IMG/VR virus record: IMGVR_UViG_3300045980_000027
Coordinates: 1 to 28,130 of that record
Origin: a virus
Lineage: Duplodnaviria; Caudoviricetes
Strand: one strand, 5' to 3'
DNA length: 28,130 nucleotides
Position 1 is the first letter of the stretch. Each line of letters starts with the position of its first letter. A model generated the notes under the pieces. It searched no databases. It worked only from the letters and a program-made list of their open reading frames with translations, and had not been told where the DNA came from. Of this stretch, positions 24,959 to 28,130 are shown one piece after another. A program made the position numbers and the translations under genes.

Positions 24959-25083
24959 GATGCCCCCTCGATGGTGAAGAGCTCCGGCCTGCTCGGCTCG
25001 CGCGTGCGAGAGTCTCGGCGAGGGCAGGCCGGGAAGAACGTGAGCCGGCCGCGTGGCGCGCACAGCACCCAGAAACGCGGAAA

Positions 25084-25125: not shown

Positions 25126-25161
25126 AGCGTATCAGTTCACCGTGCAGAGGGATGCAGAGGG
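25126..25161 (-). promoter_or_regulatory. Putative late promoter: -10 TACGCT with tandem CCCTCTGCA direct repeats upstream
   Basis: TACGCT at 25126-25131 (minus); 9-bp repeats at 25143-25151 and 25153-25161; first intergenic region before the packaging genes. Confidence 0.45.
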
Positions 25162-25352
25162 TCACCATCGGCGGGTCGCACTCCCGCATGCATCCGCTCC
25201 CGCATCCTCTTGTCCGCCTCCACCACGTCCGACTCCCGCACCCGACCCACCAGCACCGTGATCTCTCCCCGCTGCCGCCACGCCTTGATCGTGCGCACCG
25301 ACTTCCCCACACGCTCAGCCGCCTCCGCGATCGACAACCACCTATCCGACAT
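25137..25352 (-). CDS. Small MerR/excisionase-like winged HTH protein (71 aa)
   Basis: WLSIAEAAERVGKSVRTIKAWRQRG; GGAGG RBS inside the recombinase 3' end. Confidence 0.8.
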   Translation of the reverse strand: MSDRWLSIAEAAERVGKSVRTIKAWRQRGEITVLVGRVRESDVVEADKRMRERMHAGVRPADGDPLHPSAR

Positions 25353-26169
25353 CTGCCCTCCACTCGATCGCCTCCACCATCTTGCGCATCTCCCGCCGAT
25401 CCAGCTCGATGTACCGGCGGGTCGTCGACGGGGACGCATGACCGAGGAGCTCCTGCACCAGCAGCAGATCCGACTGGTGCGCGTACGCTCTCGTCGCACA
25501 CCGGTGCCGCAGCGTGTGCATCGTCCACCCCTCCGGCAGGAGATCGCGGATCAGCGTCCCCACCGTCGCCGGCGCGAGATGCCCCCGACCCCACTGCCCC
25601 GGGAACGCGAACCCGCGAGGGAGGTCCTGGATCGTGCGGGCGATCGTGCCCGGCAACGGCACCAGCCGCTCACGATCCCCCTTCCCGTGCACAACCAGGG
25701 ACCATCCGACGAGGTCGTCGAGGAGATCGTCGGTGTGCACCTGCGCGACCTCCGCGCGCCGCAGGCCCACCTCGGCGGCGAGGCGCAGCATGAGCGTCTC
25801 CCGCGGCGGCGCGGCCAACAGCGCCGCGCGGTACACGTGGTCGGGCGCCGGGCGAGGTCGAGGGGCTGCCGCCTTGATCCTCGGCAACGCCTCCGCCACC
25901 ACCCTGTCGACACGCTCGGTCGCGACACCCCACCGCCAGAACGCGAGGAACGTCGCCCGCCGAGACCGGCGCGTCTCCCGCGCCCACTCCTGCCGGCCCG
26001 CGTACGCCGTGAGGTCCTCCTCCGACAGCTCCCACGGTCCCACCTCGACCCGGCGGGCGAGGTGCTCGAGATGCTCACGGCGAGCGCGGCACGTCGTCGG
26101 CGGCTTCCCGCCGGCCTTCTGGTGCTCCAGAAACGCGGCGATCACCACATCCCACTCCTCAGTCAGCAC
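25342..26169 (-). CDS. Tyrosine recombinase, short XerC/D-like (275 aa)
   Basis: Full catalytic set: GLRRAE (R), HGKG (K), HTLRH (HxxR), LGH, TTRRY (Y); GTG start after GAGGAGG; no arm-binding N-domain evident. Confidence 0.92.
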   Translation of the reverse strand: MLTEEWDVVIAAFLEHQKAGGKPPTTCRARREHLEHLARRVEVGPWELSEEDLTAYAGRQEWARETRRSRRATFLAFWRWGVATERVDRVVAEALPRIKAAAPRPRPAPDHVYRAALLAAPPRETLMLRLAAEVGLRRAEVAQVHTDDLLDDLVGWSLVVHGKGDRERLVPLPGTIARTIQDLPRGFAFPGQWGRGHLAPATVGTLIRDLLPEGWTMHTLRHRCATRAYAHQSDLLLVQELLGHASPSTTRRYIELDRREMRKMVEAIEWRADVG

Positions 26170-26383
26170 GGCCCCTCCTCTCGTCTCCGTCCGTGACGGC
26201 ACGGCCGATCTCGAAGGTGTGCAGCCCCTCGTGCAGCGGCTCCCGGAAGCACCCCTCCGTCCGCTCTGGATTGACGGCCATGCAGAGCCCATGGCTGTCG
26301 AGGCAGCCGAGCGCGCCACACACGTCGCACGCCTCACACACGCGCATGGTCGCGTAGGGCGTGGGGATCACCGTGACGCTCAC
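26159..26383 (-). CDS. Small Cys-rich hypothetical protein (74 aa)
   Basis: GTGA overlap; CEACDVCGALGC...C...C...H.G.H. Confidence 0.6.
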   Translation of the reverse strand: MSVTVIPTPYATMRVCEACDVCGALGCLDSHGLCMAVNPERTEGCFREPLHEGLHTFEIGRAVTDGDERRGRAD

Positions 26384-26586
26384 GACGATGGCCGTTCGTC
26401 GCTCGTCTCGATCAGGTGTGCCGAGCACGGCGGGTACTCCTCCGACGGCCACAAGTAGCGACCGCCCCAGAGGGGCCAATGCCTGGCGCACAGCGGGATA
26501 TCCTCATCCCCGTCCACGTCTCGGTCACCCGTCGCATCCGCGACGCAGATGCGGCAGACCTCCACGGGAGTCTCGGTCACGCTCAT
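26380..26586 (-). CDS. Small Zn-binding hypothetical protein (68 aa)
   Basis: ATGA overlap; CRIC...LCARH. Confidence 0.6.
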   Translation of the reverse strand: MSVTETPVEVCRICVADATGDRDVDGDEDIPLCARHWPLWGGRYLWPSEEYPPCSAHLIETSDERPSS

Positions 26587-26738
26587 CTCTCGCCCTTCCG
26601 CTTCTCGTCTTCCGCGGAGCACGCCTGGTTGTGCTCCGCGGCGTCCGTATCGGCCGCGCTGAAGAACGTTCGCGGCGGGCCTTCCCACCCGCAGTCGAAG
26701 CAACACCCCTGGTGGACACTTTCAACATGCGCGCTCAT
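26583..26738 (-). CDS. Small Zn-finger-like protein (51 aa, MSAHVESVHQGCCFDCGWEGPPR...AAEHNQAC...), absent from the ORF track
   Basis: Translated by hand; GAGGAG RBS; stop overlaps next ATG. Confidence 0.65.
   Translation of the reverse strand: MSAHVESVHQGCCFDCGWEGPPRTFFSAADTDAAEHNQACSAEDEKRKGER
26595..26615 (-). repeat. Gene-junction repeat, degenerate (GCGGAAGACGAGAAGCGGAAG)
   Basis: 17/21 identity to consensus, same junction position. Confidence 0.7.
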
Positions 26739-26925
26739 GCCTGCTCCTCTCGTCCCGAACCTCGCGCTTCACGGTCAGCACGTGGGTGCCGTTCGCGTGG
26801 GCCTGCACGCTGTCGAGGTATCGGTTCCCCGCGCACAGCACGAGGTAGTCGTCATCGAGCACGCGCTCCTCCAGCACCTCGCCCGTCCCCGGGTCACTCA
26901 CCGTCACCTTGATCGGATCAGCCAT
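26722..26925 (-). CDS. Small hypothetical protein (67 aa, MADPIKVTVSDP...)
   Basis: GGAGG RBS supplied by the junction repeat. Confidence 0.7.
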   Translation of the reverse strand: MADPIKVTVSDPGTGEVLEERVLDDDYLVLCAGNRYLDSVQAHANGTHVLTVKREVRDERSRHERAC

Positions 26926-27286
26926 CGGTCACCCTCCGGTTCTCGACATCCGCCTGCGTGATGCGCGTCAGGTAGCAGAGCGAGCAGCGGTCGAGTGGAC
27001 GCTCCCGCATCGGTTTCCACTCGTGCTCGTGCTTGACCGCCACGACCTCGCGCCCTTGCAGGAAGTTGACCAGAAGGCCCCAGCACGGATCACAGAGCGG
27101 GGCTTCCTCGTCGGATCGCATCATGCCCCTGTCGTCATGTCGAATGGTCGCGCAGGCGACCCGGACGGACCTCCGGGTTGTGGTCTCGACCTTCTGCTGG
27201 ACGATGCCCCAGAACGAGTAGCCGAGTATGTTGTCGATCGTCTCGACCGCCTCGCCGCATCGACGGCACTTCGCCTTGTCACTCAT
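26918..27286 (-). CDS. Zn-binding hypothetical protein (122 aa, MSDKAKCRRCG...)
   Basis: Three CxxC motifs; RBS from repeat; ends in ADVENRR. Confidence 0.7.
   Translation of the reverse strand: MSDKAKCRRCGEAVETIDNILGYSFWGIVQQKVETTTRRSVRVACATIRHDDRGMMRSDEEAPLCDPCWGLLVNFLQGREVVAVKHEHEWKPMRERPLDRCSLCYLTRITQADVENRRVTDG
26933..26954 (-). repeat. Gene-junction repeat, exact copy (GGCGGATGTCGAGAACCGGAGG)
   Basis: Identical to 27292-27313 and 28031-28052. Confidence 0.9.
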
Positions 27287-27480
27287 GACTGCCTCCGGTT
27301 CTCGACATCCGCCGACTTGTGCGCTCCGAACTCCACGCATCCACCGCAGTAGTCACGACCACCCGGCAGCTCGGTGCGTCCTCCCATCGCCCGAACATCG
27401 GCGCGCGCCTTGGTCGAGGTGTGCGACGCGGCGATCAGTCGCCCGCAGCCGTCACAGATGATCGCGCGCTCGATGCTCAT
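27283..27480 (-). CDS. Small Zn-ribbon protein (65 aa, MSIERAIICDGCG...DYCGGC...)
   Basis: Two CxxC motifs; ATGA overlaps; ends in ADVENRR. Confidence 0.7.
   Translation of the reverse strand: MSIERAIICDGCGRLIAASHTSTKARADVRAMGGRTELPGGRDYCGGCVEFGAHKSADVENRRQS
27292..27391. repeat. 100-bp exact direct repeat, copy 1 (includes junction motif)
   Basis: Base-for-base identical to 28031-28130. Confidence 0.92.
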
Positions 27481-27854
27481 CGCTCGCTCCGAATCTCGAC
27501 ATCTGCCGAAGGCTGAATCTCGAACCACCAGCTGTCGTCTTCCCACTCGACGCGGATGGGGTACGTCCCGAGCGGCAGCCCGCCGAAGTACTCCGCGTCG
27601 GTCGCGTTCTCGAAGACGTAGGCGAGGGCGCAGGTATCCGACTCGACCAGCCAATCACCGTCGCGGTAGTAGTGGTCCTTGCCGTGTCTCACGCGCTCGT
27701 CGCCGGGGTCGTACTCCGGGTTCATCGCCTGGCACGCCTGGCGCTTGCACCGCCGCAAGGTGGCACAGTCGGCACCGTGCGTGCCGCCGAACTCATACCC
27801 GTAGTCGTCGCTCTCCTCGTCGGGGAGTCGGGTGATTGTGACCGTGTGGCTCAT
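27477..27854 (-). CDS. Acidic Cys-containing hypothetical protein (125 aa, MSHTVTITRLPDEES...)
   Basis: GGAGGGG RBS; ends in ADVEIRS. Confidence 0.7.
   Translation of the reverse strand: MSHTVTITRLPDEESDDYGYEFGGTHGADCATLRRCKRQACQAMNPEYDPGDERVRHGKDHYYRDGDWLVESDTCALAYVFENATDAEYFGGLPLGTYPIRVEWEDDSWWFEIQPSADVEIRSER
27487..27507 (-). repeat. Gene-junction repeat, variant (GGCAGATGTCGAGATTCGGAG)
   Basis: Same position relative to stop/start; 3 mismatches to the exact copies. Confidence 0.85.
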
Positions 27855-27888
27855 GGCTGGCCCCTCCGAATCTCGTGCTTCGTCTCGG

Positions 27889-28023
27889 TCATTGGTTCTT
27901 CTCCCAGATATTGAAGGCGCGACGAAACTCCGGGGTATCGTCCTTGCCCTCCCGTGTGAGCCGGTCGAGATACTCGTCCAACTCGGCCTGCGAAAGCTCT
28001 TGCGGGTCAATGCGTTCGGCCAT
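27889..28023 (-). CDS. Small acidic helical protein (44 aa, MAERIDPQELSQAELDEY...)
   Basis: GGAGG RBS from repeat. Confidence 0.6.
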   Translation of the reverse strand: MAERIDPQELSQAELDEYLDRLTREGKDDTPEFRRAFNIWEKNQ

Positions 28024-28130
28024 CGCCGTCCCTCCGGTTCTCGACATCCGCCGACTTGTGCGCTCCGAACTCCACGCATCCACCGCAGTAGTCACGACCA
28101 CCCGGCAGCTCGGTGCGTCCTCCCATCGCC
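28007..28130 (-). CDS. 3' part of a second copy of the 27283-27480 Zn-ribbon gene (runs off the window)
   Basis: ...AMGGRTELPGGRDYCGGCVEFGAHKSADVENRRDGDGRTH*. Confidence 0.65.
   Translation of the reverse strand, partial: AMGGRTELPGGRDYCGGCVEFGAHKSADVENRRDGDGRTH
28031..28130. repeat. 100-bp exact direct repeat, copy 2 (truncated by window end)
   Basis: Identical to 27292-27391. Confidence 0.92.

Follow-up and report, generated by a model that had tools for sequence, protein, structure and literature searches.

The DNA studied here, referred to as the window, is the whole stretch of 28,130 nucleotides (nt) of the IMG/VR record IMGVR_UViG_3300045980_000027, a virus of the class Caudoviricetes, which carries at one end an array of small genes whose junctions bear a 22-bp repeat, beside the gene of a tyrosine recombinase. 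The repeat is real and widespread, it marks points of whole-gene exchange between phages, and, as judged from sequence comparison, it has the geometry and the arm sequence of the attachment (att) site of the adjoining integrase family. The array is a case of cassette shuffling of a new variety, with a specific and testable candidate enzyme. It is moderately probable that it represents a phage-borne cassette system of the loxP or pdif kind, with att-shaped, two-armed sites, in which the exchange of genes is likely catalysed in cis or in trans by arm-less integrases of the BPs type.

The original prediction, made from the sequence alone, described about ten short, co-oriented genes with overlapping stops and starts, punctuated by a conserved motif. 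Nine complete open reading frames (ORFs) of 13–125 amino acids (aa) with overlapping stops and starts are present, and the exact 21-mer was located on the minus strand where it had been placed, at 28031–28051, 27292–27312 and 26933–26953; two of these three copies are not independent, as the last 100 nt of the contig equal 27292–27391. The core CGAGAWYCGGAG has five copies in the window, every one inside the array (mean in shuffled sequences, 0.05). A profile built from related loci recovered six window copies, adding those at 27487 and 27864 and a weak one at 26596, and none elsewhere in the window. Three of the proposed variant copies were thus retained, while those at 26755 and 26174 fell under the profile threshold, with scores of 2.9 and 1.3 on the arms only. 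No site is present at the junction at 26380, and the degradation of the copies towards the recombinase end was likewise as described. The spacer GTCGAG is common to four of the five strong window sites (Table 1).

Pattern scans covered viral contigs, genomes and metagenomes. Arrays were accepted when two copies, a GC content of at least 58% and a start codon after the copy were present, single chance matches being discarded; this filter left 61 loci, corresponding to 28 distinct small-gene arrays (window included) with 98 copies. Named carriers are Microbacterium, mostly prophages and satellites, and the arrays are located in early operons, ahead of late genes, in small prophages of about 16 kb and in satellites. 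The ATT-type pattern matched 29 of 401 genomes against one for the reversed control, and arrays were present in eight of the 20 regions inspected. A loose, genus-wide pattern was discarded, having matched 286 of the 401 genomes through ordinary host ribosome-binding sites. The upstream gene reads 96 of the 98 copies in one frame, and in nearly all cases a start codon follows 2–12 nt after the copy. The isoleucine codon ATT is used in 68 of 97 copies, compared with 7% of the isoleucine codons of the window genes, and residues vary; rare codons being kept while residues change, the constraint acts on the DNA.

Two further features of these elements were recorded. The repeat is present in satellite-like elements at tRNA-Val beside aceE (L021, L034 and L243), and in L021 and L034, which carry a distant arm-less integrase, the repressor end appears to coincide with the att core. 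Small-gene regions of L049, L048, L244 and L245 show recurring gene-end families (TTEQ-G, EGEKR and GGVR), suggesting additional types of junction linker.

Genes were found to recur from site to site beside different neighbours. Cassette C of the window does so in L245 (347/347 nt, 83.6%), and the same was observed for L022 with L032 (98%) and with L023, for L117 with L245, and for L242 with L243 in one genome (96–99%); the layout of L242 is X-a-b-X, as in the window. Breaks in homology were seen at 34 of 37 junctions with the repeat, against 27 of 36 junctions of other kinds and 10 of 103 points in mid-gene. In nine close pairs with the same upstream gene, the left arm is identical in eight, the spacer in eight and the right arm in four; in nine close pairs with the same downstream gene, the corresponding figures are zero, four and six. 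The left flank tracks the upstream gene, and the nucleotides preceding the start codon track the downstream gene (equal length in 13/13 pairs vs 25%). The upstream gene carries left arm and spacer along, and the right arm mostly accompanies the downstream gene; the crossover falls between the two arms. A cassette consists of a right arm with the ribosome-binding site, the gene, and a left arm and spacer that form the last codons of the gene. The check on relatives proposed beforehand thus gave homologous genes that begin and end at the repeat beside other neighbours. The claim that recombination between copies would swap whole genes is supported in part, as regards these boundaries.

As a separate observation, two further phages from this series of samples have a gene end and a site in common (L315, 1–331; L024, 250–340), after which one has an array and the other directly a helix-turn-helix (HTH) gene.

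The repeat is a dyad, CNRAY-6 bp-RTYNG, and the best of 302 dyad registers places 5-bp arms at -7 to -3 and 4 to 8 round a 6-bp spacer. The att site of the integrase family consists of CCCC(C/T)AAC, the spacer CTTCTG and a right arm exemplified by GTTGGGAG, TTTCGGAG or ATCCGTAG, with identity between attL and attR stopping at the right edge of the spacer; the attP of phage BPs, as annotated, reads CCCCCAAC CTTCTG TTTAGGAG. An arms-only profile from 75 copies of 23 arrays without this integrase was run against a background of 919,396 positions. Nine of 11 att sites scored 8–12 bits, in the top 2e-5 to 1.2e-4 of the background, and the same nine remained in the top 2e-4 to 4e-3 when the ribosome-binding bases were removed. 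A model from 22 att sites alone gave scores of at least 3 to 87% of 97 repeats and to 0.4% of 227 control junctions; its left arm fits at a spacer of 6 (mean 3.6), weakly at 7 and not at 4, 5 or 8. At the dyad register, tRNA-Arg(ACG) ranked first among 44 host tRNAs. Arms agree with att, whereas the 6-bp cassette spacer departs from the att spacer, and no cassette spacer was found in the host tRNAs of genome G328. Cassette right arms agree at 5.5/8 positions with the attP arm of their own element and at 4.9/8 with those of others (p = 6.5e-4; 10 elements), a comparison weakened by its hand-picked sites. With this match in geometry and arms, support for a link to the recombinase goes beyond what the sequence alone could give.

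The recombinase has all six catalytic residues (R138, K163, H218, R221, H244 and Y253) and aligns to the BPs family from residue 1–5, with no N-terminal arm-binding domain. Its identity is 46% to cluster G integrases and 46–50% to integrases of cultured phages. A structure search gave a weak match to PDB 5vfz Gp33, the Brujita integrase, and IntI4 was the weakest among 10 structure matches (E 2e-4). Lunt and Hatfull are said to have reported in 2016 an overlap of 6 bases for the Brujita integrase. Integrases 67–74% identical to that of the window insert prophages of about 16 kb at tRNA-Arg, bounded by 36–52-bp repeats of the 3' part of this tRNA; in G229, att lies inside the 3' end of the repressor gene. 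Integrases of the BPs type act without arm sites and without directional control, according to the accessible parts of the published work (PMC3694055, PMC7194413, PMC8138268 and the CyranoPS preprint 10.64898/2026.10.29.762952). Between the recombinase and the next gene of the window (25340–25358), the junction GATGTC equals the conserved integrase tail of the small prophages, which start another gene on its ATG; the integrase may have been spliced into the large window phage at this point.

In small prophages the array sits between attP and the integrase gene (int); the order in G292 is attL, six sites, int. Sites are present in four of four relatives at least 70% identical with upstream DNA, and in six elements the last site lacks a start codon and lies 88–136 nt ahead of int. 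Three large phages retain this integrase next to such arrays besides other recombinases. Arrays in elements without this integrase occurred in two of seven genomes having it elsewhere and in five of 394 lacking it (p = 0.005; counts compiled by hand); L053 and L002 have a common IMG genome number. Distant short integrases (26–34%) are carried by four elements. Free-spacer scans indicated that other lineages retain the arms with their own spacers (CGCGAG three times, CGACCG three times, CACTCG twice). In G253, a large prophage with an additional, separate long integrase, three junction sites carry the att spacer itself, in a different reading frame and downstream of a short integrase.

In that prophage, mini-ORFs of 10–12 codons downstream of its spare short integrase (L425, 19005 and 19918; L426, 756) have attP-like ends resembling a viral repressor tail. 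Upstream of int in L473, L476, L480, L483 and L488, the kinds of spacer, taken from att to int, seem to keep to one order (CTTCTG, C-AGAG, CAC--G, CACACG, CGACCG-like), as though each slot had its own type.

Several results weigh against a role of this integrase, and of site-specific exchange in general. Its clade adjoins only four of the 28 arrays; 20 others lack it across at least 3.8 kb of downstream flank, and the near-complete phages L022, L025 and L053 encode long integrases only. In a survey of 80 viral integrase loci, 49 with upstream DNA were examined and only 10 had two or more candidate sites, a count with no chance control; in three of these 10 one candidate is attP itself, and many other viral integrase loci have att near int and no array. 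Decay of the window copies is greatest close to int, and no att core, repressor or terminal site (lacking a start codon) was found within the window, whose contig does not include the DNA upstream of the array. The attP sites of G229 and L004 scored only -4 and -2 on the arms-only profile, and on the att model the three AAC-type right arms of the window scored -2.2 and the copy at 26596 scored -5.0. A close second to tRNA-Arg was tRNA-Lys(CTT), and therefore the att match is in part one that tRNA anticodon arms give in general. The search patterns themselves required the invariant CGAG, which hence is no evidence; copies share ancestry, so p-values are inflated and independent comparisons few. 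Spacers are unequal in five of the nine close pairs with the same downstream gene, contrary to a strict overlap-homology rule. Ordinary junctions break often too; therefore the regions are mosaic anyway, the repeat adding a marginal excess only (p = 0.06). No recombination product, alternative gene order or circle junction was seen in the contigs of four runs, and contigs drop rare variants.

The mechanism proposed would be as follows. The arm-less integrase, needing neither arm sites nor a directionality factor, would bind the cassette arms and recombine cassette sites with one another in the manner of loxP variants, the differing spacer presumably keeping them apart from attP and attB. Its action would be in cis on arrays adjoined by int, as in the window and the small prophages, and in trans on prophages and satellites residing in the same host. 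Unequal spacers might be accommodated by a single strand exchange followed by resolution through replication or a resolvase, by analogy with Xer-exploiting phages (available sections of PMC5357621). Homologous recombination probably adds events, for example via the 207-bp duplication of the window.

A rather unlikely alternative, though the most serious of those considered, is that the copies are att-derived relics now acting as mere boundary sequences. Phage single-strand annealing proteins or RecA would then swap genes through short homology, with selection keeping frame and ribosome-binding site. This agrees with the scarcity of integrases in cis, with the location of several arrays in early operons, before a putative exonuclease gene (read from the sequence, with no family search), with breaks at ordinary junctions being nearly as frequent and with exchange between sites of mismatched spacers. 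Copies are also more alike within than between arrays (0.79 vs 0.74, p = 4e-4), the three identical 22-nt copies of the window span both arms, and the boundary-sequence model is already published, as the accessible portions of PMC3233612, PMC2839356 and PMC3945230 indicate. However, minimal pairing lengths are given as 23–27 bp for Red-beta and 31–34 bp for RecA in the part of PMC3945230 consulted, and shared runs are mostly well short of these, although identity may have been lost after the events. Between copies of the same array, the longest stretch of identity is 9 nt at the median, and 23 nt is attained in seven of 150 pairs. Moreover, conservation is position-specific and mirrors the att half-site, position 4 being free in both arms, with no block decay, and arms persist while the spacer changes between lineages.

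The proximity of nearly all copies to a start codon would also suit a regulatory element overlapping the ribosome-binding site, whether an operator for a repressor or a start-associated sequence (SAS), with junction swapping incidental; this was judged improbable. The left part of GT-type copies matches the BPs repressor operator, the 12-bp palindrome CGACATATGTCG at promoters (PMC4557955), at 10/12 positions in 14 copies, and SAS motifs are known from Microbacterium phages (PMC7302621, in part). Against it, only 14 of the 98 copies have two mismatches or fewer to the operator and no CA-type copy has three or fewer, all 34 having 4–9. Repressor sequences visibly differ among elements that share the repeat, the window has no copy outside the array, start codons are missing at terminal copies, and the repeat is not among the motifs printed in the accessible part of PMC7302621. 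Very improbable, and largely refuted by codon use and independent loci, are a conserved peptide tag at the C terminus (ADVEIRR), for which the single reading frame could be quoted, and an artefact of assembly, for which the exact 100-nt repeat at the contig end could be: rare codons are kept while residues vary, the sites of G253 use another frame, and the repeat was found in independent assemblies and in 27 other arrays. A likeness to the L5 stoperator was dropped, the copies being confined to the array and the CA-type copies misfitting.

Beyond the exchange by arm-less integrases favoured here, a broader system can be proposed, at slightly less than even odds. Actinobacterial temperate phages might run an integron-like system of their own, in which the arm-less integrase of tRNA-Arg would also excise, insert and reorder single small genes at att-like sites. 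The 6-bp spacers would define separate compatibility groups, large phages would keep a spare enzyme for such shuffling, and co-resident prophages and satellites would share one cassette pool in trans.

Gene X is present twice, and the assembly broke inside its upstream copy, which accounts for the exact 100-nt terminal repeat of the contig. In runs X1 and X3 the 207-bp unit forms a separate contig piece at about twice the neighbouring depth (X1, 24.4 vs 11.9 and 13.9; X3, 9.4 vs 6.6 and 5.5, in assembled contigs). In runs X11 and X18 it is joined to gene A, with an unknown gene (U) on the upstream side; the upstream neighbour of this copy differs from that of the second one and is absent from every related locus compared. 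The simplest reading is the local order U-X-A-B-X-C, a duplication with both ends in repeat cores; a circle A-B-X at equal copy number would also agree with the contigs. The homologue of gene X in L043 (55%) is likewise flanked by sites. No cassette gene could be assigned a function from Pfam, PHROGs or the protein atlas. CxxC motifs are present in five of the nine small genes (26159–27480), suggesting zinc-binding proteins.

The window makes up the whole of one 28-kb virus contig, which encodes siphophage virion genes. Its terminase and portal are 88% and 76% identical, respectively, to those of a prophage in the Microbacterium genome G330. From the array at the contig end the order continues with the tyrosine recombinase, an HTH gene, HNH and terminase. 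Public sequencing runs containing the contig sequence are ant-metagenome runs, and RNA runs contain 18–68% of the words of the region, a measure of word content and not of expression. A DNA search against cultured phages gave one short gene match only (11 records, each ≤9% of the query); the Microbacterium phages Kozie and MO526 match 26192–26378 of the array at 73–74%. No promoter, terminator or hairpin signals were found in the array, the promoter scan being of sigma-70 type only. Elsewhere in the window, 54 nt of late-gene leader (24984–25037) are 98% identical to the same place in L024, an otherwise distant, co-occurring phage, possibly a late regulatory element common to both or a recent exchange. 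An SRAP peptidase gene and two HTH genes (55–2351) lie on the opposite strand, facing the lysis module.

Table 1. Features of the cassette array and its flank in the window, with the arms and spacers of the sites.
Feature	Position	Strand	Remarks
Gene X, upstream copy, 3' end	28007..28130	-	Truncated by contig end; 28031-28130 identical to 27292-27391
Cassette gene A, 44 aa	27889..28023	-	No function from Pfam, PHROGs or protein atlas
Mini-ORF, 13 codons	27851..27892	-	Contains site 2
Cassette gene B, 125 aa	27477..27854	-	No family match
Gene X, 65 aa	27283-27480	-	Two CxxC
207-bp unit, two copies	27292..27498	-	Site core to site core; includes gene X
Cassette gene C, 122 aa	26918..27286	-	
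Gene D, 67 aa	26722..26925	-	
Gene E, 51 aa	26583..26738	-	
Gene F, 68 aa	26380..26586	-	3' end without site; homologue in L023 not flanked by sites
Gene G, 74 aa	26159..26383	-	At most a trace of a site at 3' end
Site 1 (X/A junction)	28032..28053	-	Left arm CGGCGGAT, spacer GTCGAG, right arm AACCGGAG
Site 2	27864..27885	-	Left arm AGACGAAG, spacer CACGAG, right arm ATTCGGAG
Site 3 (B/X junction)	27487..27508	-	CGGCAGAT, GTCGAG, ATTCGGAG; top fit to att model
Site 4 (X/C junction)	27293..27314	-	CGGCGGAT, GTCGAG, AACCGGAG
Site 5 (C/D junction)	26934..26955	-	AGGCGGAT, GTCGAG, AACCGGAG
Weak site (D/E junction)	26753..26774	-	CCGTGAAG, CGCGAG, GTTCGGGA; under profile threshold
Degenerate site (E/F junction)	26596..26617	-	CCGCGGAA, GACGAG, AAGCGGAA
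Arm-less tyrosine recombinase, 275 aa	25342..26169	-	BPs/cluster G integrase family
HTH gene	25137..25352	-	Overlaps recombinase stop; HNH, terminase and other virion genes next

How phages become mosaic gene by gene is an old question, for which the usual choice lies between homology at boundary sequences and illegitimate recombination followed by selection (PMC3233612, accessible part). The array family suggests a third possibility, in which a phage integrase exchanges genes site-specifically; a single protein of 275 aa and sites of 22 bp make it open to testing. If it holds, mobile accessory genes of phages would form a pool that can be searched, and actinobacteria would have a natural series of loxP-like sites differing in spacer; if short-homology swapping alone holds, boundary sequences still gain a traceable origin in att sites. 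Literature searches, with subscription papers mostly outside their coverage, gave no description of att-like junction arrays.

One close comparison is the integration-dependent immunity of the mycobacteriophages BPs and Brujita, with which the arrays share an arm-less integrase, close relatives at tRNA-Arg and cassette arms matching att half-sites. In BPs, int directly follows the repressor, whereas in the present elements cargo genes and att-like sites of different spacer intervene between attP and int or are housed in large phages; no such arrays are described in the accessible parts of PMC3694055, PMC7194413, PMC8138268 and the CyranoPS preprint. Lambdoid boundary or linker sequences (PMC3233612) and the T4-type PeSL (PMC2839356) are, in the portions seen, likewise short conserved junctions at which small non-essential genes are exchanged, and here too homology between phages begins and ends in the conserved junction. 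Their exchange is attributed there to homologous recombination, and the dyad and the att match have no counterpart in those portions; PeSL is a promoter plus stem-loop, and none was found in the array within the limits of the promoter scan given above. The SAS of cluster K mycobacteriophages and cluster EF Microbacterium phages (PMC7302621, in the part available) is similarly a conserved motif over the ribosome-binding site of small genes, but it is intergenic, cluster-specific and of other sequence, whereas the present repeat lies in the tail of the upstream gene and is common to unrelated phages and satellites.

Like integrons, the array has co-oriented one-gene cassettes beside a tyrosine recombinase, with duplications and reordering. 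It differs in having no hairpin attC (single-strand folding of attC type gave a mean z of 0.16 and 0.12 on the two strands, and values below -2 in 3/98 copies), a recombinase that is not IntI and is most closely related to phage integrases, and a 22-bp site inside coding sequence. The integron-like design initially proposed is therefore kept as a co-oriented array of mobile cassettes, and not as regards a folding attC or IntI; the integrase is of BPs type and does not adjoin most arrays. In pdif modules of Acinetobacter plasmids, genes are flanked by simple, short-spacer sites of a tyrosine recombinase and are thought to be shuffled site-specifically, as in the arrays; those modules depend on host XerCD and dif-like arms, with inversely oriented sites according to a cited title (PMC9771954, accessible text). 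The dif core TAA-N6-TTA occurs in 0/98 repeats, and a host dif-like site once in each of three genomes. Here, in contrast to pdif, arms are those of phage att-like sites, all sites point the same way, and each serves at once as a gene end and as a ribosome-binding site.

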